A stretch of DNA of 64,000 nucleotides from Escherichia coli (GTDB lineage Bacteria > Pseudomonadota > Gammaproteobacteria > Enterobacterales > Enterobacteriaceae): the NCBI RefSeq assembly GCF_011045215.1, contig NZ_CP049201.1. One strand, written 5' to 3'. The translations under genes and the position numbers were made by a program. How positions within the stretch are numbered: the stretch's first letter is position 1; the number at the start of each line of letters is the position of its first letter. Positions 45,183-64,000 of this stretch are shown piece after piece. The notes under the pieces were generated by a model, which was not told the origin of the DNA, ran no database searches, and saw only the letters and a program-made list of their open reading frames with translations.

Positions 45183-45267
45183 GCCGAAGTGGCGAAATCG
45201 GTAGACGCAGTTGATTCAAAATCAACCGTAGAAATACGTGCCGGTTCGAGTCCGGCCTTCGGCACCA
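45183..45267 (+). tRNA. leuX: tRNA-Leu (anticodon CAA)
   Basis: 85-nt sequence GCCGAAGTGGCGAAATCGGTAGACGCAGTTGATTCAAAATCAACC...GGTTCGAGTCCGGCCTTCGGCACCA; anticodon loop TTCAAAA; long variable arm; CCA end. Confidence 0.93.
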
Positions 45268-45456: not shown

Positions 45457-46707
45457 ATGGCACTTACTGATATCAAAGTTAGGACTACCAAGCCCTCCGA
45501 CAAACCTTTCAAACTCACAGATGGGCAGGGTATGCACCTGCTGATCAACCCCAATGGTTCAAAATACTGGCGACTCCAATACCGTTTCGATGGCAAACAG
45601 AAAGTTTTAGCATTGGGTGTTTATCCAATGGTCTCTCTTGGTGAAGCTCGCAGGAAACGAGATGAGGCTAAAAAGTTGGTATCTGATGGTATCGACCCTT
45701 CCGAGAAGAAAAAGGCAGACAAGATCGAGCAGAGCGAAGCTCTTACTTTTGAATCTGTTGCCAGGGACTGGCATAAGGCTTGTAAAAGGAAATGGTCAGA
45801 TTCCCATAGCGAGAGAGTTCTAAAAAGCATGGAAGATGGTCTCTTTACTGCTCTTGGTAAAAGAAAAATATCCGAGCTTAATACCAGAGATCTTCTTGCC
45901 CCTATCAAGGCTGTTGAAGCTTCTGGGCGACTGGAAGTTGCTTCCCGCCTACAGCAAAGAACAACGGCAGTGATGCGATATGCTGTCCAGAACGGGCTGA
46001 TAGATTACAACCCTGCCCAGGAGATGGCAGGAGCTATTGCAGTAGCTAAAAGAGTCCACAGGCCAGCTTTGCCATTCGAACGATTCTCAGAACTTTTAGA
46101 ACGAATTGATAGTTTCAAGGGTAGAAAACTCACGAAGTTAGCCGTAAAGCTGACATTGCTCATTTTCATTCGTTCCAGTGAACTTAGGTTTGCTCGTTGG
46201 TCAGAGATAGATTTCGACAATGCCATGTGGACTATCCCTGGGGAACGTGAGCCATTGCCAGGGGTCAAACATTCTCATCGAGGCTCAAAAATGAAGACAC
46301 CACACCTCGTGCCGTTAAGTCGCCAGGCTATAGAACTCCTCAAAGCTATCAAAGAAATCAGCGGTGAATGTGAACTTGTATTCATTGGTGATCATGATTT
46401 TAGAAAGCCTATGAGTGAAAACACGGTAAACAAGGCTTTAAGGTCTATGGGCTACGACACTACGGTTGAAGTATGTGGACATGGTTTTCGTGCGATGGCA
46501 TGTAGTGCGTTGATCGAATCGGGAAAATGGTCAAGGGATGCTGTTGAACGGCAGATGAGCCACCAAGAGCGAAACTCCGTTCGTGCTGCCTACATTCATA
46601 AAGCAGAACACCTTGATGAAAGAAGGCTTATGTTGCAGTGGTGGGCTGATTACCTTAATGCCTTGAAAGATAGGTTTATCAGTCCCTTTGATTTTACAAC
46701 AAAGTAG
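45457..46707 (+). CDS. intB: P4-family tyrosine integrase (IntB-like) with N-terminal DUF4102-type domain
   Basis: 416 aa, MALTDIKVRTTKPSDKPFKLTDGQGMHLLINPNGSKYWRLQYRFDGKQK N-terminus typical of tRNA-associated island integrases; C-terminal HGFRAMA...R...Y catalytic region; lies 190 bp from the leuX 3' end. Confidence 0.9.
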   Translation: MALTDIKVRTTKPSDKPFKLTDGQGMHLLINPNGSKYWRLQYRFDGKQKVLALGVYPMVSLGEARRKRDEAKKLVSDGIDPSEKKKADKIEQSEALTFESVARDWHKACKRKWSDSHSERVLKSMEDGLFTALGKRKISELNTRDLLAPIKAVEASGRLEVASRLQQRTTAVMRYAVQNGLIDYNPAQEMAGAIAVAKRVHRPALPFERFSELLERIDSFKGRKLTKLAVKLTLLIFIRSSELRFARWSEIDFDNAMWTIPGEREPLPGVKHSHRGSKMKTPHLVPLSRQAIELLKAIKEISGECELVFIGDHDFRKPMSENTVNKALRSMGYDTTVEVCGHGFRAMACSALIESGKWSRDAVERQMSHQERNSVRAAYIHKAEHLDERRLMLQWWADYLNALKDRFISPFDFTTK

Positions 46708-46794: not shown

Positions 46795-47934
46795 ATGTCC
46801 ACAATTAACCCCGCAATTTTTTCTTTTTTCTCTGGTTCAGGATTTCTTGATCTTGGATTTGAAAAAAATGGTTATGAAGTGGTTTTCGTGAATGAATACC
46901 ATGCTCCGTTTATGGATGCATATAAACATTCGAGGAAAAAATTAAATATAGCACCACCTCGTTTTGGGTATGCAGAGTGCAGTATTGAAGATGTAGAACA
47001 TGAAAAAATTAAGTCTTCTATGCTTCAACTTAAAAATGAGGGGCGATTGACTGGATTTATTGGTGGTCCACCATGCCCGGATTTCTCTGTAGCGGGTAAA
47101 AATAAAGGTCGAGATGGTGAAAACGGTCGGCTTTCACAAAGCTATATTGATATCATTCTTGAAATGAAACCAGATTTCTTTCTTTTTGAGAATGTTAAAG
47201 GTCTATACCGTACCAGTAAACATAGGGAATTTTTTGACCATTTAAAAACTCAATTAGAATCGGTTGGTTATTGTTTGCATGAAAAACTAATAAATTCTAT
47301 TGAATATGGTGCTCCTCAAGATAGGCAACGAATCATATTGATTGGTTTCCTTGATGAAAAATATGCAAGCCAATTCAATTGGGGGCAAAGAGTCTACCCT
47401 GAAAGAACTGCATTTGAATATAAATGGCCGACGACAAACCAATTTTCAGAAAACACTTCTGTTATAAAACCAAAGGGTATCCCAGAAGAGTTAACAGTAG
47501 AGCATTGGTTCAAGAAAAACCAGGTTGATAATCATCCAAATGCAAAGCATGTATTCGCGGCAAGAGCAGGGCTTGCGAGGTTTTTGACTGTCGAAGAAGG
47601 GGATGATAGTAAAAAATCCTATAAAAGGTTACATAGATGGAGATTTTCACCAACTGCTGCTTACGGTAATAATGAGGTACATTTACATCCTTATAAACCA
47701 AGAAGAATTACTGTTGCCGAAGCATTAGCAATTCAGTCTTTACCAAAAGAATTTGAATTACCTGCTTATATGACTCTGTCTAATATGTTTAAAACTGTCG
47801 GTAACGGTGTACCCTACTTAGCAGCGGCCGGTATTGCCAAATCTATTATAGAGCATTTAGGAATCGAATATGAGAGTAACTGCGGCGAACTTAGCACAGG
47901 CGATTGCCAATCTACCAAGAAACACGCAGTTTAA
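46795..47934 (+). CDS. DNA (cytosine-5)-methyltransferase
   Basis: 379 aa with C5-MTase motifs: I FSGSGFLDLGFE (FxGxG), IV GGPPCPDFS (Pro-Cys), VI FLFENV, VIII QDRQR, X GNGVP near C-terminus; AT-rich. Confidence 0.85.
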   Translation: MSTINPAIFSFFSGSGFLDLGFEKNGYEVVFVNEYHAPFMDAYKHSRKKLNIAPPRFGYAECSIEDVEHEKIKSSMLQLKNEGRLTGFIGGPPCPDFSVAGKNKGRDGENGRLSQSYIDIILEMKPDFFLFENVKGLYRTSKHREFFDHLKTQLESVGYCLHEKLINSIEYGAPQDRQRIILIGFLDEKYASQFNWGQRVYPERTAFEYKWPTTNQFSENTSVIKPKGIPEELTVEHWFKKNQVDNHPNAKHVFAARAGLARFLTVEEGDDSKKSYKRLHRWRFSPTAAYGNNEVHLHPYKPRRITVAEALAIQSLPKEFELPAYMTLSNMFKTVGNGVPYLAAAGIAKSIIEHLGIEYESNCGELSTGDCQSTKKHAV

Positions 47935-48946
47935 TTATGTAAATGTGCGAAATTCGGGAAGAATCATTGTAACGAATGTTCAACTTCCCGAAGGCCCAAT
48001 AGAATTCAAAAGATTCGATCCAAAAAAGGGTGAGACACTGCATAGTTCTAAATCGGAAAGCATCTCCACACAAATGTTGTGGAGATTGGCTAATGCTTTA
48101 CAGGAAGATGTCCCTGTCAATTTGGATCGTATTTTTGGTGCAAGCTATAATACACGTGCTGTTCTCGAAAGCCTTTTGGCCCATACTCCTGAGTTTTATT
48201 GGTGTAAGCTTGATCGCCTTGAGGTAATGAACACTCAGAAAAATATTAAAAAAGGTCACAAGCACCTTATTTATAGACCAAATGACCCACATGAAAATGG
48301 TGTAGCAATAGAACATACTACTAATGTTATAATTTCTGAAATGAATTTAGATGTTGTCCATCAATCAGTTGATATAGAGACAATCTTACCTACTAAAGGA
48401 ATGACGATTGAGGAAAAAAGACGTCATGCACAAATTCAAATCTCATTAGTAAAAATAGGTCATTACTTAGGTTATCGGACATGGGTTGCAGCAAATGATC
48501 GTGGCCTCCAATATAATGGAAAATCTATAGCCCAAATGGATGGGGTCATAGATAATTTAAGAAATGAACAAGTGCTTCAATCATATGATAAAGCTATCAA
48601 AGAAGCTCGGCTTATAGATTGTATTTGGTTTCGAAATGGAAAATTAATGCCTGCAGTTATGGAGATTGAGCATAGCACTGGTATTAAAAGTGGTTTGGTA
48701 AGGATGAAACAATTTTATGATTATGCACCACAGTTAAAAAATATACGTTGGACCGTTGTGGCACCTGACGAATATAGAAATAAAGTTATAGAGTTTTCTA
48801 ATATGCCACAATTTAAAGAATTAGATACTCGATTCTTCCCCTATTCTGCTGTAGAGGAACTCTATTCATTATGTGCAAGAAGGAATCCTCAAGGAATTAC
48901 AGACGATTTCCTTGATGCATTCATGGAAAAGTGTGTGACACATTAA
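47870..48946 (+). CDS. Putative nuclease-like partner of the methyltransferase (candidate restriction endonuclease); function inferred
   Basis: 358-aa ORF; ATG with AGGA SD overlaps MTase 3' end by 65 nt (translational coupling); C-terminal D...E-x-E-x(6)-K-like stretch (LIDCIWF...VMEIEHSTGIK) compatible with a PD-(D/E)xK core. Confidence 0.45.
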   Translation: MRVTAANLAQAIANLPRNTQFNYVNVRNSGRIIVTNVQLPEGPIEFKRFDPKKGETLHSSKSESISTQMLWRLANALQEDVPVNLDRIFGASYNTRAVLESLLAHTPEFYWCKLDRLEVMNTQKNIKKGHKHLIYRPNDPHENGVAIEHTTNVIISEMNLDVVHQSVDIETILPTKGMTIEEKRRHAQIQISLVKIGHYLGYRTWVAANDRGLQYNGKSIAQMDGVIDNLRNEQVLQSYDKAIKEARLIDCIWFRNGKLMPAVMEIEHSTGIKSGLVRMKQFYDYAPQLKNIRWTVVAPDEYRNKVIEFSNMPQFKELDTRFFPYSAVEELYSLCARRNPQGITDDFLDAFMEKCVTH

Positions 48947-50893: not shown

Positions 50894-52156
50894 TTGAAAT
50901 ATAAAATAAAAAGATTGAAGAATAAAGATGGTATCAGAAGTTGCATTATTATTAATGAGAGCAACGGATTACCCTTGGTTTATTCTAACTTATATATGAG
51001 TGTTATTTCACGAACAAATAGCTATTCATTTTCAACAATGGAAGCAATAGCAAATGCTTTGCTTTTATTTGAAAGATATAATGCTTACATGAATGTGGAT
51101 GTTTTTGATATGGTAAATCCTGACATCGAAAAACTTGTCTCGAACAAAGGATATTTATTCGGGTTAATGAATGCCCTTTCTTACAGAAACGACTTAGAGA
51201 ATGTTACAAGCATTCTTAAAGAACAACATGTCTCTAAAAGAACCCTTTATTTCAAGATAATGACAATTGAAAATTACGTCAAATGGTTTTTTGATAACAT
51301 TGCTATCAATAATATTGATTCTTCTCGTTATGAAGCAATCAGTCGAGCATTTGATTTTATAAAGCCAAGAATAGAGAACGGAAAGAATTACAATATTGAA
51401 AGCGAAAGCAAATCATTGACAAATGAGCAAGTTACAACTTTGACTGATATGGTAAGTGTTAAATCTAAGATTAATCCATTTTCGGAGCATGTAAGGTTTC
51501 GAAATAATCTAATAATTAAAATTTTATTAGAGACAGGTATTAGGGGAGGGGAACTACTTAATATTAAGTTGGTTGATTTTGACTATGTCCACAAAAGTCT
51601 ATGCATAGTAAGAAGGCCAGATGATCAAAACGAACCACGATTAAGGCAACCATTGGTTAAAACTTTAGAAAGAAAAATACCATTGAGTATAGAATTGACT
51701 GAGTTAATACAGAATTATATTAGTGATTTCAGAGGTAAGCAGTGTCATGCAGGGGAGCATGACTATCTGCTTGTTACTCATAGCAGTAAAGGTCAATTAG
51801 GTCATGCATTAACTATTTCAGGTTATCAGAAAATTTTCGAACAAATTAGGAAAAATAGTAATGTTTTGAGCGATATTGTGGGGCATTCGCTAAGACATAC
51901 TTGGAATGTGAAATTCTCAGAAATGATGCTCATGAATTCGAACTCTCAGGAATATATTACTTATGAGAAAGTAAGAAATTATCTTATGGGGTGGAAAAAG
52001 AATAGTACAACCTCAGATATCTATAACCAAGCATTTATAGCACAAGAAAGCCGAAAAATAATGGCTGTTATTAATCCACTCAAAAACATAGTAGAGGACA
52101 AATCCAATGTTTCAAACTCTAAGAAAGCTACAAGAAAGTCAATATTCGGTTTTTGA
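50894..52156 (+). CDS. Tyrosine recombinase 1 of a three-recombinase operon
   Basis: 420-aa ORF (TTG at 50894; first ATG at 50996); conserved ETGIRGGELLNIKLVDF (box I Arg), HSLRHTW (HxxR) and ...SDIYNQ (Tyr) catalytic elements. Confidence 0.75.
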   Translation: MKYKIKRLKNKDGIRSCIIINESNGLPLVYSNLYMSVISRTNSYSFSTMEAIANALLLFERYNAYMNVDVFDMVNPDIEKLVSNKGYLFGLMNALSYRNDLENVTSILKEQHVSKRTLYFKIMTIENYVKWFFDNIAINNIDSSRYEAISRAFDFIKPRIENGKNYNIESESKSLTNEQVTTLTDMVSVKSKINPFSEHVRFRNNLIIKILLETGIRGGELLNIKLVDFDYVHKSLCIVRRPDDQNEPRLRQPLVKTLERKIPLSIELTELIQNYISDFRGKQCHAGEHDYLLVTHSSKGQLGHALTISGYQKIFEQIRKNSNVLSDIVGHSLRHTWNVKFSEMMLMNSNSQEYITYEKVRNYLMGWKKNSTTSDIYNQAFIAQESRKIMAVINPLKNIVEDKSNVSNSKKATRKSIFGF

Positions 52157-53432
52157 AACCAAGGATGGTAATTTCAAAGTGAACTTTTCTTATTCCAAGT
52201 GGAAGATAAGTGAAAGTATAACATTGAACATTGATTCTTTAAGAGTGGTCATCAGTGCATATATACCTATCAAAACCACTTTGGCATATTTCGCTATAAA
52301 TTATAGTGCCAGTTATACTAAGAAAATGTTTTATGCAGTAAAGCATTACATTAAGGCCTGTAATACGAATGATAGCTTGTTTTCTAAAGATTGCATAAAG
52401 TATTACTATAAAGTTGTGAGCTCATTAGATTACACACATGCAGAGACAGTCAAATATTTTTTTATGAAGATGAGTGGTCTTTACCCATCTTTGTTTTCGG
52501 CAGAAGCAATCATATTTTTAGAAAATATTAAAGTTAAAAAAACAAATGCAAACAAGTCTATAAAGACACATGATTATAAAAAAGGTCCCTTTAGTGACTC
52601 GCAATTAAAGGTAATTATAGATTCTGTAGCGATAGCTTATAAGGAAGAAAAGGTAAGTCTGTCAAACTATCTGCTAACCTTCCTTGTTGCATATTCCGGG
52701 CGGCGACCTATGCAAATATCTCAACTTGAAGCTGGTGATCTCTTTGCTTTTAATGGAGAGTACTTTCTCAATATCCCAAGAATTAAACAACGAAATGGAT
52801 ATAGAAAAGAGTTTAGAAAATTACAAATTCCAGAAGAGCTTTTTAGCCAATTGACATATCTCGTTGAAGCTGTGAATTCGCTGGTCAGTGACACATTAAA
52901 AATCGATTTAAGTGAAAAACAAAAGAGAAAACTACCAATTTTTATAAACACATATCCATTCAAAAAAGGATGTGTTGAGCTAAACATGATTGAAAGTGGT
53001 GGATTAAAACTTAACCCCTATGCCATAACACTAAAAATAAGGAACACTATAAATCGTTCAATAAATGAATATCAAGCCTATCTGGGGTGTATAAATTCGC
53101 GCAGATTTAGATATTCATTAGGCACTAAGGTTGCACAATTGGGTTATAGTCCTTCACTGATAGCAAATGTTTTGGACCATTCTTCAATCAATTCTGTTAT
53201 GAGTTATATAGAAAATACAGCGGAAAATGGCAAGAGAATTAATGAAGCTGTAAATGAACTAATGAAGCCACTGGCTAACAAATTTATTGAGGGAAAAGAG
53301 CTTCAGAAAGAGTTAGATTCTTTGAAGCATTTGATAGAAGAATACTGCGGTGGATATAAAACTAACTCTTTTGATAATACAGCAATATCGTTAGTAACTA
53401 ATTCTATCGACGATATGATCAATAGCATTTAA
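52107..53432 (+). CDS. Tyrosine recombinase 2 (divergent catalytic motifs)
   Basis: 441 aa; SD AGAGGA before ATG; AYSGRRPMQISQLEAGDL (box I), RRFRYSLG...LDHSSINSVMSYIE (box II-like with Tyr); overlaps upstream gene by 50 nt. Confidence 0.7.
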   Translation: MFQTLRKLQESQYSVFETKDGNFKVNFSYSKWKISESITLNIDSLRVVISAYIPIKTTLAYFAINYSASYTKKMFYAVKHYIKACNTNDSLFSKDCIKYYYKVVSSLDYTHAETVKYFFMKMSGLYPSLFSAEAIIFLENIKVKKTNANKSIKTHDYKKGPFSDSQLKVIIDSVAIAYKEEKVSLSNYLLTFLVAYSGRRPMQISQLEAGDLFAFNGEYFLNIPRIKQRNGYRKEFRKLQIPEELFSQLTYLVEAVNSLVSDTLKIDLSEKQKRKLPIFINTYPFKKGCVELNMIESGGLKLNPYAITLKIRNTINRSINEYQAYLGCINSRRFRYSLGTKVAQLGYSPSLIANVLDHSSINSVMSYIENTAENGKRINEAVNELMKPLANKFIEGKELQKELDSLKHLIEEYCGGYKTNSFDNTAISLVTNSIDDMINSI

Positions 53433-53447
53433 AAGAAGGATAAAGTG

Positions 53448-55052
53448 ATGAAAGAAATCCATGATAAAATGATTAATAACTTCATTATCGCTAATAAGGC
53501 CCATGCGAAAAATTTTGGAAATTTTGAGTGGGATAATTCAAGTTGGGGAGGCGGAATTACATTTTTTAGCGGAATCAAGGTTAGAATGGGGAACAAGAAT
53601 AAGAAATTAATGAATTATAACATTGCAGAGTTCGCAAAAGCATATGTATGGCATGAGTGCTTTCATGATTTATCTGTAGCTTTCAGAGTGCTGAGATTAT
53701 TTAGGATATTAGAAATTGCCATAGGTAAAACAAATAAAGAAGTTAAGATTTCAAGTATAGATCATAAAGTATTAGATGAAGTTATGACTATTGTTCAAGA
53801 AAATTTTGCAATATCCACTTCTTATAAAATATATTTAGATCTTAGGGTATTATGTTCTTTTATGTCTAAGAACGAAATGTTGCCAGAATCCATTACACGA
53901 TGGTCATATCCATTTAAGGCATATGATGCTTACACAAATAGCACAATGGATTCGATGGGAAATTTATCCAATCAGAAAAAACTTCCTGATGAAAAGGCTA
54001 TAGATTTTATTGGTAAAATATTTAGCTCTAATCCAGTTAATGAAAGGGATATATTTACATCTTCTATTTTTGCATTGCTCTTATGTGCTCCATCTCGAAT
54101 TAGTGAAATTATGCTTTTAGAAGAGGACTGTGAAGTTATAGTTGAAGATAGTAATGGCATATCAAGATATGGTTTGCGATTTCTTTCTCTGAAGGGCTTT
54201 GGATACAATACCAAATGGATTCCAGACTGTATGGTTTCTGTAGCTTCAAAGGCTATCATGCGATTGAAAAAACTTACAAGGAATGCAAGGGTTGTTTCTC
54301 GGTTAATAAAAGCAGGGGAAATTAATTTATACGAGTCATTAAACAAAAGTGCGTTTGATTGTTTAACAATTGAAGATCTCCACAAACTTGGCTTTGTTAT
54401 AAATCAATTAAATATCTCCCAAGAAAATCTAAAATTCTTGGCTAAGATAAAACATGGTACAGTCAGTGTAAAAGCATTTTGGATTTATATAGAGCGAAAG
54501 AATGTTAATTCTGAAAATATTAATGCTAATTTATGCTCCATAAATCATAATTTATTGGACTCTATCAAGGGTGCTGATATTTTTACAACAATTAAGGCAT
54601 CTTCAAAGTATTTTAGAGCGGATTTTCGCACCGATAATATGAATAACATATTTCATAGGAATATACATTTTAACTGTGATGGTTCTGTTTTAATTTTCCG
54701 CAGCCATCAAATTAGACATTTACTTAATACTATAGCTCAACGAAGCGTATTGTCAGAGATACAAATTGCCCAATGGTCTGGGAGAAGGAGTGTTAAGCAG
54801 AATTCAGTATATGATCATATGTCTCACAACGAGTTATCAGAACTATCAAGGAAACTATTGAACGGAAACACCTACGAAGAAACAAAAATTTCAGCATCTT
54901 CATTTAATGAACAATCGATTATTATGAATTTGATTAAAGATAAATTTGAAAAACTAGAATTAAAAATCCAAAATTCAGATCCAAGAAAAAGAAAATATAT
55001 TCTGGAAAAAATTAAAGATTTAAGATTGGAAATTGAATACATATTAATGTGA
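53448..55052 (+). CDS. Tyrosine recombinase 3
   Basis: About 534 aa (GTG-ATG at 53445/53448); CAPSRISEIMLLEEDC (box I), HQIRHLLNTIAQ (HxxRH), ...SVYDHMSHNE (Tyr). Confidence 0.7.
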   Translation: MKEIHDKMINNFIIANKAHAKNFGNFEWDNSSWGGGITFFSGIKVRMGNKNKKLMNYNIAEFAKAYVWHECFHDLSVAFRVLRLFRILEIAIGKTNKEVKISSIDHKVLDEVMTIVQENFAISTSYKIYLDLRVLCSFMSKNEMLPESITRWSYPFKAYDAYTNSTMDSMGNLSNQKKLPDEKAIDFIGKIFSSNPVNERDIFTSSIFALLLCAPSRISEIMLLEEDCEVIVEDSNGISRYGLRFLSLKGFGYNTKWIPDCMVSVASKAIMRLKKLTRNARVVSRLIKAGEINLYESLNKSAFDCLTIEDLHKLGFVINQLNISQENLKFLAKIKHGTVSVKAFWIYIERKNVNSENINANLCSINHNLLDSIKGADIFTTIKASSKYFRADFRTDNMNNIFHRNIHFNCDGSVLIFRSHQIRHLLNTIAQRSVLSEIQIAQWSGRRSVKQNSVYDHMSHNELSELSRKLLNGNTYEETKISASSFNEQSIIMNLIKDKFEKLELKIQNSDPRKRKYILEKIKDLRLEIEYILM

Positions 55053-57259: not shown

Positions 57260-58405
57260 CTATAAACGAATTTTTATCGCCTTGTTTAAAGGTTTCATTG
57301 CGTAGATATTTGAGAAGGTCGTGTGTGTTTTGTGAAGAATGGTCTTACCAAAGCTTCTCAGAAGCTCGATGTAATGCTTTATGGAAGCAAGCCACTCTAC
57401 GAATCTGAGATGCTTTTGCCGTTGTACTGCATTTTTTTGAAGAATCTTTCCTACGATTTCGTTTCGTTTGTCTTCTCTAAGCCGTAATTCCAGTTCTGCA
57501 ATTTTTTCAACGATACTTTCCTTTCTCTCAGTGGTTTTCAACACTGTTGCAGGAGCAGGAGCAGCAGGTTGGTCTTTTGTCGATATGTCGCTTCGTAGAG
57601 CTTCTAAGTGGTCGGGGTTGTAGTTAAGCCGATTACTGAGATTTGCCCAGGAGTAGCTCTTGCCCAATTGTGAAGCTTTGAAAGCTATGCCTGTGTATTC
57701 GAAAGAGAAGCCGTTCATTTTACCGGTAGAGGCAATATTGGCCTTCCAAGATACTTCAGCTTCTTCCAGCCTCTTGATAAAAGTTAGAAGGTCCGGCTTA
57801 TCAGATAAACTTTTATCAAGTATCTGCTGCAGAGCTTCTCTTGGTGAAAGCACCCCGGTTCGTTCCGATAGCATTTTCTCATTACGGGACACTCTCTTCC
57901 GCTTCGGTTGTGCTTGCGAGGGGGGAGATGCAGTTTTGGTCACTGTCAGGCCATGAGCGATTTCGAGTTTACTGATGATCTGTGTGCTGATGAGGTTTTC
58001 GTTCCTACCCAAGTAGAGCTTCCCACCATTGAGATCTATGCGACTTGCGATAATGTGTATGTGCTGGCCATCGTCGTCATGAAGCACATAGCAACGAAGG
58101 TGAGTATCCCTGAACCCCATCCTCTTCATGTAGTCATCTGCGATAATGGACCACTGTTCATTCGTTAGTGTTTCACCGTCGGGTAAGCGAAGTGAGTTGT
58201 GCCAAACGGGTTTTGCGACATCTAGGCGAAGATGCTTGGTGCTATCGAATTCAGCGATCATTTCAACGGCTGAATCACTTAACATGTTCCCGCCAATGAC
58301 GACTGGATCGCTTTTGTGGTGTGCTCCCGATTGTAATACATAACGAACAACACCAGCGAAGCTCTTACCCCTCTTGATCTTCCGCATACCCTTCACGAGG
58401 GACAC
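57260..58405 (-). CDS. Mobilisation relaxase (MobA/VirD2-like nuclease domain)
   Basis: 381 aa; three-histidine relaxase motif HDDDGQHIHIIASRIDL; immediately downstream of a MobC-like gene. Confidence 0.75.
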   Translation of the reverse strand: MSLVKGMRKIKRGKSFAGVVRYVLQSGAHHKSDPVVIGGNMLSDSAVEMIAEFDSTKHLRLDVAKPVWHNSLRLPDGETLTNEQWSIIADDYMKRMGFRDTHLRCYVLHDDDGQHIHIIASRIDLNGGKLYLGRNENLISTQIISKLEIAHGLTVTKTASPPSQAQPKRKRVSRNEKMLSERTGVLSPREALQQILDKSLSDKPDLLTFIKRLEEAEVSWKANIASTGKMNGFSFEYTGIAFKASQLGKSYSWANLSNRLNYNPDHLEALRSDISTKDQPAAPAPATVLKTTERKESIVEKIAELELRLREDKRNEIVGKILQKNAVQRQKHLRFVEWLASIKHYIELLRSFGKTILHKTHTTFSNIYAMKPLNKAIKIRL

Positions 58406-58739
58406 TCCAAAAATCTGTTCTTAACAAGTTGTGACGAAGCTCTTCAAGTTGTCGCTTCACAGCGAAAAGCTCTGTATGAGTAAGCTGGCTATCTTTACTC
58501 TTACTGTCGATATGGAGAGCAATACGATTCAACTTTTGTGATATGTCAGACAATTTTTTCCAGGCTTCAGTATTAATTGTCGGTACTACTGGTGGCAGGT
58601 TTTGCAGAAATGACATGCGGAGCCATTCACCTTTACTTTTATTACCTCGTTTTATATTTAAAATCTGTAATTCATTGTTGTTGAGTCGAACACTTATACA
58701 ATGTATTCTAATTCTGTCATCTAATCTTAATTTAGCCAT
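58365..58739 (-). CDS. MobC-family relaxosome accessory protein
   Basis: 124 aa; overlaps relaxase start by 41 nt; sequence pattern typical of MobC. Confidence 0.65.
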   Translation of the reverse strand: MAKLRLDDRIRIHCISVRLNNNELQILNIKRGNKSKGEWLRMSFLQNLPPVVPTINTEAWKKLSDISQKLNRIALHIDSKSKDSQLTHTELFAVKRQLEELRHNLLRTDFWSVPREGYAEDQEG

Positions 58740-58885
58740 ATAAGTTCCTTTTATATGATTTAATATGATTAATGATAGTTATTATTTCCCATTAGTCAAT
58801 AGCAGAACGGTTTTGATATATGGGTTTAATGTGCTAAAAATAAATCTCTCTGAAATAAAGTATTCAAAGATTCCCTAAATTAAAA
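58740..58885 (-). promoter_or_regulatory. Candidate oriT / mob promoter region (inferred from position only)
   Basis: AT-rich 146-bp gap upstream of mobC with short direct repeats (ATATGATT TAAT ATGATT AATGAT). Confidence 0.3.
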
Positions 58886-60049
58886 TTAAGGATGATCTAT
58901 TGAAACAAACTTTTGACTAAACTCCAGCCATCTTGCATTATCAACATCCTTCACAAAAGCAATCAGACCTGCGACATGATTGTAAAAGCCAATTGGAGAG
59001 TCAAATTTTTCATGTCTTGCAACTTCTGAGAGACCAAATTTTTTTATTGAGTAAAGGTGGCGTTCAATACGTTTATAAGTTTGTTTAGATAATCGAGGGA
59101 CATTGCCATCAACAAGTAATCCTAAAACTATTTTTTTTGAACCAGGTCCAGCTACTCTTATTTTGCTTACGTTTTCTTTGAAATGGTGCTTACGAATGAT
59201 GCTGATAATGTTATTTTGTATTTTTCCAACCGAAACACCGTCGGGTAGAGTACCACCGCAGGATAATGTTATATCATCAGCATATCGAGTATAAGTGAAG
59301 CCATATTTATTAGCATATTCAGATAGAGAAATATCTAACTTTACAGTGGCTAAATTACTAAGCATTGGGCTACTCGGTGCCCCTTGAGGTAGCACTCCTA
59401 ACGGCCATGGTTCTGATATGTCCCAAAAAAGGCTCTTCTCTTTATTTTGTCCGTAAAGCTTATATTCCTTAGTTGAGTGCTTAGGAACAGAAATTAGAGA
59501 TTGTAAATGTTGTGGTAAACGTATAGTTGTGCATAGCCTTGATAGTTCAAATGCTATTAATGGCCGATATCCAGCATTTTTAAAAACCATATAAACATCA
59601 GATTCATTTATTGAATAAAAGAAATCGGAAATGTCGAATTGGAAGAGCCATTTAGCACCACAATGCTGTTCTGCACATTTTCTGATGCCACCATTAGGAT
59701 GGAAAGCAAAAGAAGTATTATGGGGAACTAACTTTTTTAATATTTCACTATTGATGAAATGCTGTACTTTAAATATCTCGCCAGTTACAGCATGAATATG
59801 GCGTCTTCCACCTGAACGTTTTTTTATAGCAAACATGCGATAATTTGCTGATTCACGGCGGCGTGATACAGTGGATCGTAGCAAGCGATAATCAACACCA
59901 GTAATTTTTGAAAGATGGCGTAATGTAAAAATTACAGGGAGATTATTTTTCTTCAGATTACTTGCATAATTTCTTAAGTTTAGAGCCTGTGTCTTCCCTA
60001 AGGATGACTCTGCATTTTGATAAAGTTGGTGTGCTGACCAGATTTCCAT
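58886..60049 (-). CDS. Retron-type reverse transcriptase
   Basis: 387 aa; RT motifs FQFDISDFF (A), LPQGAPSSP (B'), YTRYADDITLS (C); by-eye alignment to remembered retron Ec86 RT (QGAPSSP.LANL...YTRYADDLTLS, IDLEDFFPS); C-terminal VLGLLV in place of the retron VTG. Confidence 0.85.
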   Translation of the reverse strand: MEIWSAHQLYQNAESSLGKTQALNLRNYASNLKKNNLPVIFTLRHLSKITGVDYRLLRSTVSRRRESANYRMFAIKKRSGGRRHIHAVTGEIFKVQHFINSEILKKLVPHNTSFAFHPNGGIRKCAEQHCGAKWLFQFDISDFFYSINESDVYMVFKNAGYRPLIAFELSRLCTTIRLPQHLQSLISVPKHSTKEYKLYGQNKEKSLFWDISEPWPLGVLPQGAPSSPMLSNLATVKLDISLSEYANKYGFTYTRYADDITLSCGGTLPDGVSVGKIQNNIISIIRKHHFKENVSKIRVAGPGSKKIVLGLLVDGNVPRLSKQTYKRIERHLYSIKKFGLSEVARHEKFDSPIGFYNHVAGLIAFVKDVDNARWLEFSQKFVSIDHP

Positions 60050-60237
60050 TCACCTATCCTTTGAGCCCAGGGGGCCATCAGTGTCATACATTTTCCGAGT
60101 CCTCGATGGCCGTTAATGTATGACATTGAAGGGCGGCGTAGCCGCCTTTGCGTCAGATCTTTCCAGAGATGTTTCTCCAACATCCCCATCCGTTGTAACA
60201 AAAGCCACAACAGATTCTGTCAAACAAGCGGTGAACT
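60050..60237 (-). ncRNA. Candidate structured ncRNA (possible retron msr-msd-like template) in the PRTase-RT spacer
   Basis: 188-nt non-coding spacer directly upstream of the RT; 15-bp stem (60078-60092 pairs with 60115-60129, one G-U) with 22-nt loop; adjacent GGCGGC-GTA-GCCGCC hairpin (60132-60146). Confidence 0.4.
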
Positions 60238-61458
60238 TCACTCATCATTGTTTAACGGCTGAACGGAGTGCTGATCAGCACACCAAGACTCTGGAATGTA
60301 AAGACCAAAATCCCATACACTATCGTTTTTAACATGCCTAGAATTTACAAGTATGTCAAGTCCGAATTTAGATAATCGTTTTTGAGTTGTCAATAGTCCT
60401 AATGTCTCTGCATATATGAGTAGTTTTTCTACATACGAACAATCAACATTCAAACGTAAGGCAATGCTTTTGTTATCTCTGACACCTCTTTTTATAAGTT
60501 TTAGTAAATTTATAATTTCGGGAGATAAAGATGAATGGGGGGAAGTGTTATGCTTTGTTCCATTTTCTAACAAGGCAAGCAGCCATCCTGGAATTGCTCT
60601 ATCAGGCATTAGTCCTTGCCATTTTTTATTAGAAAACCATAGTATTCCAGGAAGGTTATTAGGGACGCTATGATAAAAAATTATATTAGATAAAACATTA
60701 CCATAGCCAAGACGAGCCCATGGAGGAATTTTGGTTTGATTTTTACAAAGATTGATTATTTCATTATACTGCTCACCCCACCGAGTTTCTAACCAATTTT
60801 CATTATATACGATGTTACTTATGAAATTGATTTTTTCAGATTTTCTATATTTTCTTACTCCATGGTCTGAGCCGCGAATAGTATTGATTATTCTATTTTC
60901 AGAACCTAGTGTTCTGGCGAAAGAAATTAAAGTTAATCTTACTAGTCCTAAACTCCACCAACTTAAAAAGGTAGGGTTATCGAGCATGGCATTAATAAAT
61001 CCGGATACTCTATCACCACTACCAATCGAATCATCAATAAGTAAAAAATCGTTGACTTTAGATTTTTTCAGATCATTGAGTGATGGATGATCTAAAAACA
61101 TAGTTTTATTAGACCGCACAAGGTTTGAAATAATTGAATATACTAAGTCTTCGCTACCTTGCGAATGACCTGGTCTATTAACAACATCACCATTAAGGTC
61201 CCATAATACTTGTTTGTCTGGATCTAATTTGCGAACTGAATAAAGGGCATAATTTTTATTTTTTGGTAAATCAGAAATGCTCTTTTGAAGCCATATGGTA
61301 AACTCATCTCTACTTACAAAAGTTAACTTGCTCAAGATGTTTTTTGCAATCGCTTTTTGGCTGCTATTAAATTGCATAAGCCATTGAGCTATTTCCTGAG
61401 AGGATTCAATTTTTTCTACTGAAAGTATTTTAAATTTAGGTTTGTCTCTTGTTTTCAT
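60238..61458 (-). CDS. Phosphoribosyltransferase-like protein (putative RT-associated effector)
   Basis: 406 aa; PRPP-binding-like motif KVNDFLLIDDSIGSGDR (hydrophobic strand, DD, small-Gly); encoded immediately upstream of and co-directional with the RT. Confidence 0.55.
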   Translation of the reverse strand: MKTRDKPKFKILSVEKIESSQEIAQWLMQFNSSQKAIAKNILSKLTFVSRDEFTIWLQKSISDLPKNKNYALYSVRKLDPDKQVLWDLNGDVVNRPGHSQGSEDLVYSIISNLVRSNKTMFLDHPSLNDLKKSKVNDFLLIDDSIGSGDRVSGFINAMLDNPTFLSWWSLGLVRLTLISFARTLGSENRIINTIRGSDHGVRKYRKSEKINFISNIVYNENWLETRWGEQYNEIINLCKNQTKIPPWARLGYGNVLSNIIFYHSVPNNLPGILWFSNKKWQGLMPDRAIPGWLLALLENGTKHNTSPHSSLSPEIINLLKLIKRGVRDNKSIALRLNVDCSYVEKLLIYAETLGLLTTQKRLSKFGLDILVNSRHVKNDSVWDFGLYIPESWCADQHSVQPLNNDE

Positions 61459-61693
61459 TTTTTTTAACCACTGTCAGGGCAATTGTTATTTCATAACATA
61501 AAAAGTAATGATGGTAAAGGTTTTGTTGTATCATTAACCTTCTTTATAACTGAGTAGACTAAGTTTAGTACTCTTATACGAAGCTAAATGAGCTAAATAT
61601 TAAATACTAAAATGTAATGGCGGATATTTTTCAACCGAAGGGCGAAAAACAAGGGAACGCAAAGAAGCGGAGCTTCGATGAGTTAGCCCTTGC

Positions 61694-62296
61694 TTATTCA
61701 TATGATTTGTATTTCTTTTCATCTACTAAATTTATTATGGACGATGAGGTTTTATATATCAACTTTACATTGTGTAAAGATATATTGTGTTTGCTAATAA
61801 AATATAAAAGATCCAATAGCATCTGTTCTTGCCGTTCTTGTGGAAACTCTAATTTTACGATTGGAGTAAATTCAACAATAAAACCACTATTCAACAGTAG
61901 TTTTATGTAGCTAAATGAGTTTGGCGTAACTGTTTTGATTTTTATTATTTTATTAGTAATTAGATGCTTATGGTTTATAATAATGTGAGGGTTGAGCAGT
62001 GCCATATCATATGACATGAATGTTAAACCATGACTATCTATTATGTTCAAGTCGATACCAAGTTGTATAAACATATCGATTATTGCTTTGCTATGTATCC
62101 AGTTATAAAATAAAGGTGTCCTTCCATAGTTATCTAAATGATTTAGGTCGGCTCCTGCAGCTAAAAGAGATGTTGTAAGTAAATAGTCATTAGAATAAAA
62201 TAATGGTGTACGACCACAATTATCCTTTAAGTTTATTAAACCATTGTCTATGAATATATTAGATAAATTATTGTGCATTTTACCTCCTTTTATCAT
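61694..62296 (-). CDS. Ankyrin-repeat protein
   Basis: 200-aa ORF; two clear ankyrin repeats (GRTPLFYS...LLAAGADLNHLDNYGRTPLFY) plus degenerate third (DSHGLTFMS). Confidence 0.6.
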   Translation of the reverse strand: MIKGGKMHNNLSNIFIDNGLINLKDNCGRTPLFYSNDYLLTTSLLAAGADLNHLDNYGRTPLFYNWIHSKAIIDMFIQLGIDLNIIDSHGLTFMSYDMALLNPHIIINHKHLITNKIIKIKTVTPNSFSYIKLLLNSGFIVEFTPIVKLEFPQERQEQMLLDLLYFISKHNISLHNVKLIYKTSSSIINLVDEKKYKSYE

Positions 62297-62339
62297 TATG
62301 TATATTAAAAAAAGGAGGTTGTCAATATTTAGAGGTTAG

Positions 62340-62588
62340 TTAACCACCAAATGTTTTTTTCTTAGGTTGTGGGGGCTCTGCATTAAGTATGATAGTTTTA
62401 ATATTTGCATTTATTTGATTGATATTATCAGTCAATATATTAATAACTGATAATGCTTCTACAGGTGTGCTAAATGATGATTCTAAAAACACGCCTGAGC
62501 CTTTCAAAAATATATGGTAAGTGAGTATGCCATTTTCTTCATTTTCATATATATCATAAAGTTCATTTACTGTTTCGTACAATTTCAT
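62340..62588 (-). CDS. Hypothetical small protein (82 aa)
   Basis: ORF between the ATPase-partner pair and the ankyrin gene. Confidence 0.45.
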   Translation of the reverse strand: MKLYETVNELYDIYENEENGILTYHIFLKGSGVFLESSFSTPVEALSVINILTDNINQINANIKTIILNAEPPQPKKKTFGG

Positions 62589-62643: not shown

Positions 62644-63519
62644 TTATAAATGATCTCCAATGTGAGCAATAGCGATTTGTGCCGGTCTATCAGGAATTCT
62701 ATTAAAGAAGCCAAAGTATATTCTATTGTAGTAATAAGTTCCTTTTCGATTAGTATTGTCCATGTATTCAAGTTTATAATGGAATTCACAATTCACGTCT
62801 TTATAGATACAATCACCCACTTTAAAATCACGTTTTAATTCCCCTATGGCTCGTTTATTTTTGCCTCCACCTTCTGGTGTTACAAGATAAGGTAACGATG
62901 AATTCATAATTCTAATGTTATGTTGTGAGTCATTAGGTATAATTGTATAGTTATTAACAAAATAAAGAAATTCAGTGATGCTTTTCAAAAAATTTTCATA
63001 TCCACCTTCAATTTTCCTAATAAAATTAAAGGTTTGTGGTGGGTTATCCAAAAAAATGACATTCTTGAAAATGTTTTTAATATTGTCAGCATATTCATCA
63101 CAATCCGATGGGAATTCATCAAGGATTTTCTTAGAAAGATCAATTATTTCACTTTCACTAGAAACTGTATTATCCTTTTTTAAAGGTATGTCTGGAGATT
63201 GATAGGCACAGAGTTTTCTTTCGGCAAGTATCGATGGGGATGTATTGATGATATTTAGAAGTTCATTGCAGCCTATTTCATCCAATAAACTAATTTGGCC
63301 TATTTTATAATACTCATTAACAAGGCCACCGTAATCAGGGTTTGTTGAAAATAATTTAGTGACAAATTTTCCATCAAATTCATTGGAGCGAAGAAACTTT
63401 ATAAAATCTGAATCCACTCTCTCTACAAGTGCTTTAAGATCTTTAATCTGGTTAAAAATCTTAATTTGTTCTTCTTCAAGAGAAAAACTATCTATGAACA
63501 AGCAAACACCTGCTTTCAT
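62644..63519 (-). CDS. Hypothetical protein, partner of upstream ATPase (possible degenerate HNH-like nuclease)
   Basis: 291 aa; starts 9 nt after the ATPase gene stop; C-terminal C-x6-C-x2-H-x9-N-x10-N segment (DCIYKDVNCEFHYKLEYMDNTNRKGTYYYNRIY) loosely HNH-like. Confidence 0.5.
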   Translation of the reverse strand: MKAGVCLFIDSFSLEEEQIKIFNQIKDLKALVERVDSDFIKFLRSNEFDGKFVTKLFSTNPDYGGLVNEYYKIGQISLLDEIGCNELLNIINTSPSILAERKLCAYQSPDIPLKKDNTVSSESEIIDLSKKILDEFPSDCDEYADNIKNIFKNVIFLDNPPQTFNFIRKIEGGYENFLKSITEFLYFVNNYTIIPNDSQHNIRIMNSSLPYLVTPEGGGKNKRAIGELKRDFKVGDCIYKDVNCEFHYKLEYMDNTNRKGTYYYNRIYFGFFNRIPDRPAQIAIAHIGDHL

Positions 63520-63528
63520 GAAATCCCC

Positions 63529-64000
63529 TTAATTTTCAATATCAGGAGTATTAAATGATCCTGTCATAATGGTATACATATCAATTGATTGCTGGTCAAA
63601 GAATCCTTTCGGCCAACTAGAAAGTTTTCCATCTTTGCCAATAGATATCTTTTCTGCAGTAGATTCATTATTCTCATGTGAAATATAAAATAACGAAATT
63701 AGCTCAGGTGAAAAGTCAGGAGATGTTCTTGCTACGACACGGATTCCGTTGAGAAGGTGATCGCTATGAGTTTCTATGAATACCTGTACTCCCGCTTGAG
63801 CAGTGTAAGCTATTAATCTACCCATATAGCTTTGTCCTCTAGGGTGCAAATGGGCTTCCGGGTTTTCTAAAACTACTAATTCGCCCGGTTTTGCTAAAAG
63901 TAATGCTGAAACAATACTCAAAGCATAGCTATAACCAAAACCAATGTTTTTGGGTTTAGTTTGTTTTCCTGACTCAGCCTGTATTGTGTTATAAGCAATG
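63529..64000 (-). CDS. ABC/AAA15-type ATPase, C-terminal part (DUF3696-like); 5' end beyond window
   Basis: Frame open to window edge (ORF-track 'M' is TTG); ...GFGYSYALSIVSALLLAKPGELVVLENPEAHLHP (signature/Walker B/D-loop) and FIETHSDHLL (H-loop). Confidence 0.7.
   Translation of the reverse strand, partial: IAYNTIQAESGKQTKPKNIGFGYSYALSIVSALLLAKPGELVVLENPEAHLHPRGQSYMGRLIAYTAQAGVQVFIETHSDHLLNGIRVVARTSPDFSPELISLFYISHENNESTAEKISIGKDGKLSSWPKGFFDQQSIDMYTIMTGSFNTPDIEN

Follow-up and report, generated by a model that had tools for sequence, protein, structure and literature searches.

Retrons associated with a PRTase correspond to type III of Mestre et al. 2020 (PMC7736814). In Retron-Eco11, a member of type III-A3, phage helicases trigger the PRTase, PRPP falls and the infection aborts; helicase-triggered defence with PRPP depletion has been established for Eco11 and for five other III-A3 retrons (PMC12746101). 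Two elements of another lineage are listed in a retron census (PMC10849725). Retron Terminal 1373 (node 1373), from Klebsiella pneumoniae ISC21, is assigned there to RT clade 9 and type III-A3, and the only property assayed there was its use as a template for editing in human cells, with 0.52% precise editing, 4.5x that of Eco1 (PMC10849725). Retron Terminal 1374 (node 1374), from Providencia heimbachae, makes RT-DNA at 1.09x Eco1, and its product was sequenced as a DNA of 114 nt (PMC10849725). Our search of the literature found no phage-defence test reported for the 1373/1374 lineage, and no experiment on the exact locus described below. The RT of Retron-Eco1 (Ec86, type II-A3), which the literature places in the same RT clade 9, provides the nearest solved RT structure.

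The window analyzed here is a stretch of 64,000 nucleotides of Escherichia coli DNA. We are confident that it carries an intact type III-A3 retron, that is, a three-part anti-phage system, and that this retron belongs to the cargo of a mobilisable island located at tRNA-Leu. On the minus strand, a 406-aa ORF (60238-61458) is followed by a 188-nt spacer (60050-60237) and by a 387-aa RT ORF (58886-60049); strand, order, gap and both ORFs are exactly as an earlier note on this DNA had given them from a list of open reading frames. The order on this strand is therefore effector, ncRNA and RT, the ncRNA reaches into the coding sequence on either side, and the same layout is found in Eco11. Both ORFs are full length, with their catalytic and family motifs intact (YADD, DDSIGSG and Gx14PNNxP). 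Among the 38 related loci listed, which extend across phyla, 36 could be assessed, and in every one of these the RT is immediately preceded by the PRTase gene; the loci came from a scan of genome contigs, mostly with distant RTs, to which closer loci were added individually.

Proteins identical to those of the window form clusters of 163 and 213 members, with records from Klebsiella, Salmonella, Enterobacter and E. coli. Among complete genomes of E. coli the locus is rare (2 of 5426). It occupies a cargo slot of the mobilisable island, where its neighbours are a type II restriction-modification pair and an Nsn-like pair. A scan of the locus for promoters and terminators gave signals at background level, with no clear promoter or terminator resolved.

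The RT (58886-60049, minus strand) was assigned on the basis of PADLOC, Pfam and the solved Ec86 RTs. Its PADLOC match is RT_III-A (PDLC02944, E 5.6e-160), and the top 25 matches are all retron RT models. The Pfam match is the generic RVT_1, with no GIIM domain. The best solved relatives in the PDB are the Ec86 RTs (E 1e-31), against 6e-6 for a group II intron RT. The four residues of YADD (Y256, A257, D258 and D259) do not vary among 30 homologues. These results bear out the retron-type RT proposed in the earlier note, which had considered clustering with group II intron or Abi RTs as the outcome that would speak against it. The placement of this RT in clade 9 is taken from the census listing of node 1373, through the ncRNA match, and not from an RT tree.

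[quoted passage not shown] It matches PRTase_III-A (PDLC02933, E 2e-93), and in Pfam PRTase-CE over residues 24-285 (PF24390) and wHTH-PRTase_assc over residues 317-394 (PF24409). By their sequences, both proteins of the window thus belong to type III-A families. The view that the partner of the RT had no recognisable fold is outdated by the two Pfam matches. A search of the PDB found no sequence relatives of the effector. The PRPP-binding-like loop that had been pointed out in this protein is indeed present, as FLLIDDSIGSG (loop sequence in the window, FLLIDDSIGSGDR). Also, the effector contains the motif Gx14PNNxP, defined as the retron-PRTase motif (PMC12746101), in the form G-YGNVLSNIIFYHSV-PNNLP. 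Loop and motif are kept across 17 aligned effectors, Eco11 included. The idea of an ordinary salvage PRTase living outside RT contexts does not agree with the conserved position upstream of the RT described above.

The retron ncRNA (msr-msd) was delimited by conserved repeats, covariation and the census ncRNA match as a 261-nt element at 60026-60286 on the minus strand. It overlaps the last 16 effector codons and the first 8 RT codons, and it is thus wider than the 188-nt spacer. The spacer itself is strongly structured: its MFE is -80 kcal/mol, whereas 200 shuffles gave -55.5 +/- 4.1 (z = -6.0). The structured RNA that had been suspected in the spacer therefore stands, with covariation as well, and only its extent had to be corrected from 60050-60237 to 60026-60286. 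A closing helix predicted from the bare spacer (60220-60235 with 60049-60064) was rejected: it is not conserved, and is an artefact of omitting the a1 and a2 repeats that lie in the coding ends.

The 5' inverted repeat a1 (60260-60286, 27 nt) pairs with the 3' inverted repeat a2 (60026-60052, 27 nt, including the RT start codon at 60047-60049), both on the minus strand. In a1, an internal loop separates an outer arm of 16 bp from an inner arm of 6-8 bp, which ends in TTCA. The location of the two repeats is conserved in 17 loci. Helices 1 and 2, formed by a1/a2, comprise 22 pairs that are 97-100% paired, of which 7 change on both sides. Directly 3' of a1 stands the predicted branching guanosine, at 60259 of the minus strand (RNA position 28, motif TTCA-G-CC). 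It was predicted by invariance, as G28, C29 and C30 do not vary in 15 sequences, and its position is that of rG28 of Retron-Eco11 (PMC12746101). The msr (60165-60256, minus strand) folds into three stem-loops, SL1 at 60219-60256, SL2 at 60189-60214 and SL3 at 60165-60187; in its helices 3-6, 17 of 22 pairs show changes on both sides.

Taken over the whole ncRNA, the consensus structure has 69 pairs, with compensatory changes in 42 of them among 15 related loci. In the corresponding alignment (15 sequences, 285 columns), 94.4% of cells are paired in register against 37-45% when slid, and the 42 compensatory pairs compare with 13-20 in slid alignments; none of 500 shuffles attained the observed values. 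A scan of 58000-62500 against Rfam at E <= 1 returned nothing, the msr family included. We regard this blank as uninformative and not as a negative result, since no curated family covers retron RNA of this kind; for the same reason the identification of the RNA rests on our alignment and on the census listing. In about half of the relatives, for example in Marinomonas posidonica and Pseudomonas oryzihabitans, the effector frame remains open through the whole ncRNA, and stops at a TGA abutting the RT start.

A second RNA candidate had been suggested at 61459-61693. We rejected it, as this segment is weakly structured (z = -3.0), is conserved in near-identical loci only and not in more distant relatives, and includes a terminator-like hairpin of the upstream gene together with 70 nt of island-backbone sequence.

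The msd template was placed at 60054-60167 (minus strand) from the alignment with the RT-DNA of node 1374 and from the covariation of helices 7-11. The sequenced 114-nt RT-DNA of node 1374 aligns with this segment at 103 of 115 positions. The predicted msDNA would be about 114 nt long, would have the plus-strand sequence of 60054-60167, and would begin with CTATCCTTTGAGCCC (plus strand, from 60054). Three hairpins lie in it, a small one at 60064-60076, a long one at 60078-60129 and one with GGCGGC at 60132-60146, together with a 3' tail that is conserved. In the RNA of this lineage the GGCGGC hairpin is conserved, as is an 18-nt motif, GGAAAGAUCUGACGCAAA; both are absent from Eco11.

Judged by sequence, the window element is essentially the same as the node 1373 retron. 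The ncRNA of node 1373 equals the window from 60284 to 60028 (minus strand, approximately 257 aligned nt), barring an inserted T and a G/A change in the SL1 loop. The two elements stand in different host genomes and in different island contexts. Node 1374, of the same lineage and with the same helices, has an ncRNA 89% identical to that of the window (229/257). It differs by several substitutions in the inner arm of a1 and in hairpin loops, and a C precedes its branching G instead of the A of the window.

Eco11 shares with the window the gene order, the architecture of the effector (PRTase and wHTH) and the best PADLOC models. The plan of its RNA is also common to both, with overlap of the coding ends, bipartite a1/a2 repeats of 25-27 nt, G28, an msr with three hairpins, and a DNA with both a small and a long hairpin. 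At the sequence level the two are distant, with 37% identity between the RTs and 23% between the effectors, and the RT motif is YSDD in Eco11 but YADD in the window. The DNA of Eco11 has 101 nt, whereas that of the window is predicted at about 114 nt, with the extra GGCGGC hairpin in the msd. The Eco11 effector terminates within a1 and ends with YYPTTLRRP, whereas that of the window is 13 residues longer, with the tail LYIPESWCADQ... Of the C-terminal YYPxxLRxx of cluster 67_3, only Y and P align (LYIPESW against YYPTTLR) before these 13 residues. In both lineages the codons downstream of YxPxx belong to a1, so the residues of the tail follow the RNA. The effector of Ec86 also has a C-terminal winged helix, but it is nucleoside-deoxyribosyltransferase-like and not PRTase-like, and the ncRNA structure and trigger of Ec86 differ.

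The low identity to Eco11 prompted us to consider subtypes III-A4 and III-A5. We retained III-A3 because the census lists the ncRNA with two differences as III-A3, and because the best PADLOC models are shared with Eco11. Thus, the earlier note was right about a retron with an effector/ncRNA/RT layout and a PRTase-like effector, as seen from the RT_III-A and PRTase_III-A matches and from the covarying RNA. Its suggestion of an uncharacterised subtype does not hold, since type III has been described since 2020, node 1373 is listed as III-A3 and Eco11 is characterised.

By analogy with node 1374, the RT would prime from the 2'-OH of G60259 and copy 60167-60054 into the msDNA of about 114 nt. If the system works as Eco11 does, RT, msDNA and effector would form one complex that keeps the PRTase inactive, and a phage helicase acting on the msDNA would lead to activation of the PRTase. 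Depletion of PRPP would then cause the nucleotide supply to fail, and growth would stop before the phage cycle is completed, as in abortive infection. As Eco11 is distant, the trigger and the enzymology may differ.

This distance gives its weight to another reading, in which the element is a type III-A3 retron but the 1373/1374 lineage senses another trigger, or the PRTase has a target other than PRPP, so that the Eco11 mechanism could not be transferred. The low identities of both proteins, the GGCGGC hairpin and the GGAAAGAUCUGACGCAAA motif missing in Eco11, and the different effector tail point in this direction, and the Eco11 study suggests a tuning of III-A3 retrons to helicases from the phages of their hosts (PMC12746101). 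Nevertheless, the effector keeps its PRPP loop and retron-PRTase motif, the overall plan of the RNA is the same, and five of five III-A3 retrons, with pairwise identities of 45-98%, responded to UvsW (PMC12746101). We therefore hold this reading to be possible but rather unlikely.

The type III-A3 retron might also be a decayed or inactive remnant riding on a mobile element. Its rarity in E. coli, the disruption of Eco11 by IS3 in the complete E. coli genomes that carry it and the lack of a resolved promoter in the scan would fit such a state. Against it stand the full-length ORFs with all catalytic motifs intact, the identical proteins in many Enterobacteriaceae, the retention of every conserved helix in the RNA, and the fact that node 1373, with two differences in its ncRNA, functions as a source of editing templates (PMC10849725); decay is thus very improbable. 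Finally, a non-retron RT (group II intron, Abi or DRT/UG) could lie by chance beside a nucleotide-salvage PRTase, as Pfam alone gives the generic RVT_1 and Rfam gives no msr family match. We give this reading almost no credence. In the rankings of both the PDB and PADLOC retron RTs come first, with a lead of more than 25 orders of magnitude; no GIIM domain is present, and Rfam returned no intron RNA in 58000-62500. The PRTase matches PRTase-CE, a conflict-system family and not a salvage enzyme, and the PRTase-RT synteny extends across phyla. The RT rankings, the PRTase-CE match and the synteny together refute a group II intron, Abi or DRT identity of the RT.

The type III-A3 retron of the window is thus an already known system: its type has been described since 2020, and PADLOC models detect both of its proteins. 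Little of it is new, as an element with two differences in its ncRNA is catalogued and has been used as a source of genome-editing templates, and the trigger and effector activity of one member of the type have been worked out. Our analysis adds the exact coordinates in the window of the RNA, of the branching G and of the msDNA as predicted; it also gives covariation evidence, obtained independently, for the fold of the RNA in the 1373/1374 lineage, and the position of the retron in a cargo slot of the island with its restriction-modification and Nsn-like neighbours. On the basis of the invariant third hairpin (GGCGGC) and a conserved termination motif, both lacking in Eco11, of the rebuilt effector tail and of the read-through frame, the 1373/1374 lineage could conceivably form a branch of type III-A3 with a function of its own, which we consider improbable. 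If it were so, the read-through stretch would be both retron RNA and coding sequence, and this branch might respond to another phage cue or have coupled translation of effector and RT.

The effector and RT genes lie on the minus strand, the effector ORF (406 aa, 60238-61458) upstream of the RT ORF (387 aa, 58886-60049), with a 188-nt gap between them (60050-60237), an arrangement that the ORF listing confirmed as the earlier note had described it. The RT, in which the catalytic motif YADD is present, matched RVT_1 in Pfam and RT_III-A in PADLOC (PDLC02944, E 5.6e-160), and the remaining top PADLOC matches were retron RT models. Its closest solved structures were Ec86 RTs (E 1e-31); next came the retron RTs of Kva2, Ec67, Ec78, Ec83 and Eco8, and a group II intron RT was matched at 6e-6 only; family and structure searches thus both agree with the retron-type RT first proposed from the sequence. 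The effector bears FLLIDDSIGSGDR and was matched by PRTase_III-A in PADLOC (PDLC02933, E 2e-93). It had been thought to lack a recognisable fold, but Pfam placed PRTase-CE on residues 24-285 (E 1e-22) and wHTH-PRTase_assc on the C-terminal part (residues 317-394, E 5e-12), which identifies it as a PRTase-winged-helix fusion. No solved structure was related to it by sequence. In the annotation of close relatives (L001, L084, L085) the effector has 431 aa; in the window the frame of the upstream extension is closed (61458-61535), which leaves 406 aa. Alignments with distant homologues begin no earlier than residue 8-12 and so favour the start giving 406 aa over the 431-aa start.

The two genes are consistently found together. 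Among the matches listed from reference-genome loci (RT identity of at least 33%), 25 of 27 had an effector homologue as the gene directly preceding the RT, the upstream sequence being absent or the match truncated in the two exceptions. PRTase-CE and wHTH were also immediately upstream of the RT in all 11 loci obtained by exact protein look-up. The pair occurs in Proteobacteria, Verrucomicrobia, Planctomycetes, Actinobacteria and others, and the PRTase is therefore no salvage enzyme placed next to the RT by chance.

The 188-nt gap folds at -80 kcal/mol versus -55.5 +/- 4.1 for shuffled sequences (z = -6.0; 0/200 shuffles as good), so that the spacer is indeed highly structured. A 27-nt inverted repeat pairs 60286-60260 (a1) with 60052-60026 (a2), positions that put these arms inside the effector's last codons and the RT's first codons. 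Related loci were collected by a reference-genome scan and by exact look-up of RT homologues (55-70% identical); the same repeat occupied the same position in 17/17 loci examined, ending in TTCA or TTTA, then GCC. Between the arms, on the minus strand, we placed a putative branching G (60259), SL1 (60256-60219), SL2 (60214-60189), SL3 (60187-60165), a conserved single-stranded motif (60164-60147), a GGCGGC hairpin (60146-60132), a long hairpin (60129-60078) and a small hairpin (60076-60064). No Rfam family matched this RNA. In A2, an alignment of 15 retron RNAs from related loci, column identity was 68% on average and G28, C29 and C30 were invariant. RNAalifold predicted 69 pairs, with compensatory changes in 42, and covariance therefore upheld a structured RNA. 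In an explicit pair count, 94.4% of cells were paired in register versus 37-45% with the partner slid 1-3 columns; likewise, both sides had changed in 42 pairs versus 13-20, and the covariation score was 0.458 versus about 0.09-0.11. In 500 shuffles of the columns, the observed pairing, both-side changes and covariation score were never reached.

In 7 of 16 relatives (L004, L087-L091, L094), the effector frame meets no stop over some 77 codons, crossing the whole ncRNA to end at a TGA abutting the RT ATG (TGAATG); in the relative L008 (33% GC) the open stretch is 69 codons. Gene prediction gives these read-through effectors a length of 463-470 aa. The effector of the window has its stop codon within the SL1 loop (compare 60238-60286). 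The open frame might reflect dual coding or translational coupling, or might simply follow from conservation of the RNA.

Mestre et al. 2020 class PRTase-associated retrons as type III, with III-A3, A4 and A5 as the variants in which PRTase and wHTH are fused (PMC7736814). A census supplement lists "Retron Terminal 1373" from Klebsiella pneumoniae ISC21 (RT clade 9, type III-A3), assayed only in human cells, with precise editing of 0.52%, 4.5x Eco1 (PMC10849725); its ncRNA is identical to ours but for a single inserted T and a single G/A change. The ncRNA of its neighbour, node 1374 (Providencia heimbachae), whose RT-DNA production was 1.09x Eco1 (PMC10849725), is 89% identical to ours. The sequenced 114-nt RT-DNA of node 1374 matches the plus strand of window 60054-60167 at 103/115 positions, an alignment which indicates the likely msd template, the G at 60054 as the base where copying begins, and the stop site; by this analogy, reverse transcription likely stops within the conserved motif adjoining SL3. 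Both exact protein sequences are already recorded from Salmonella, Klebsiella, Enterobacter and E. coli, and of 5426 complete E. coli genomes, 2 carry a copy of the locus with 98% identity. The earlier note had correctly recognised a real retron with an effector / ncRNA / RT layout, but its suggestion of an uncharacterised subtype fails because the element is already known: it has a catalogue entry and an annotated RNA, and the mechanism of its type has been studied. The locus combines family membership of both proteins, an RNA architecture with covariation, conserved synteny and intact catalytic motifs, and we are highly confident that it is a functional type III-A3 retron.

The retron resides in a low-GC island (32-39% versus 51-55%) that starts at tRNA-Leu(CAA) (45183-45267) and an integrase (45457-46707) and extends to the window end. 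A type II restriction-modification pair (46795-48946) adjoins the integrase, comprising a cytosine-5 methyltransferase (MTase_II in PADLOC, E 1e-163) and a restriction enzyme (REase_II, E 2e-124). Three tyrosine-recombinase genes in a row (420, 441 and 535 aa), one with a weak match to the gamma-mobile-trio recombinase GmtY, are followed by genes for a MobP-type relaxase and a MobC-like protein (the whole set within 50894-55052 and 57260-58739); this set resembles a mobilisable element of the recombinase-trio kind that sits inside the tRNA-Leu island. E. coli CFSAN061761 has a homologous backbone without the retron (relaxase 69% and MobC-like 63% identical). Immediately upstream of the retron, a non-coding stretch of 70 nt (61627-61696) recurs with 98.6% identity in 7 further E. 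coli genomes. The sequence equal to it in CFSAN061761 (L095 6001-6070) directly follows the MobC-like gene, so that the retron fills a cargo slot whose edge this sequence marks. Between the retron and Nsn-like genes are a 200-aa ankyrin-repeat-like ORF and an 82-aa ORF (61694-62588), for which no family was found beyond the weak ankyrin match. At 62644-64000, an NsnC-like protein (E 6e-94) and, after it, an NsnB-like ATPase (E 2e-56), incomplete at the window end, form a candidate second defence system, 1.2 kb from the retron. Far from the retron, another low-GC stretch (28000-34000, 41-43% versus about 53% around) may be a further horizontally acquired segment.

Defence by the III-A3 Retron-Eco11 needs the RT, the branching G and the PRTase; its triggers are the phage helicases UvsW (T4), D10 (T5) and Heli22, acting through their catalytic activity, and activation lowers PRPP by about 50% and leads to abortive infection (PMC12746101). 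In its RNA, a1/a2 is bipartite (25 bp), G28 is the branching base and the msr forms three hairpins; its DNA is 101 nt with 13-nt and 69-nt hairpins (PMC12746101). Our reference locus was L003 (E. coli tcmA_3), which is IS3-disrupted; L003 and L002 (E. coli PSS-15) were the sole Eco11 copies found among the 5426 genomes, and in both an identical IS3 insertion interrupts the PRTase gene. Our RT is 37% and our effector 23% identical to those of Eco11, and the best PADLOC models are common to both systems. The PRPP loop and Gx14PNNxP are kept in our effector, whereas of the Eco11 C-terminal peptide YYPxxLRxx it matches Y-x-P only. By analogy with node 1374, the RT would prime at G60259 and make a DNA of about 114 nt. 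As in Eco11, a complex would form, helicases may trigger it, and PRPP depletion would lead to abortive infection. Provided that this is a functional type III-A3 retron, the Eco11 trigger and effector chemistry probably carry over unchanged.
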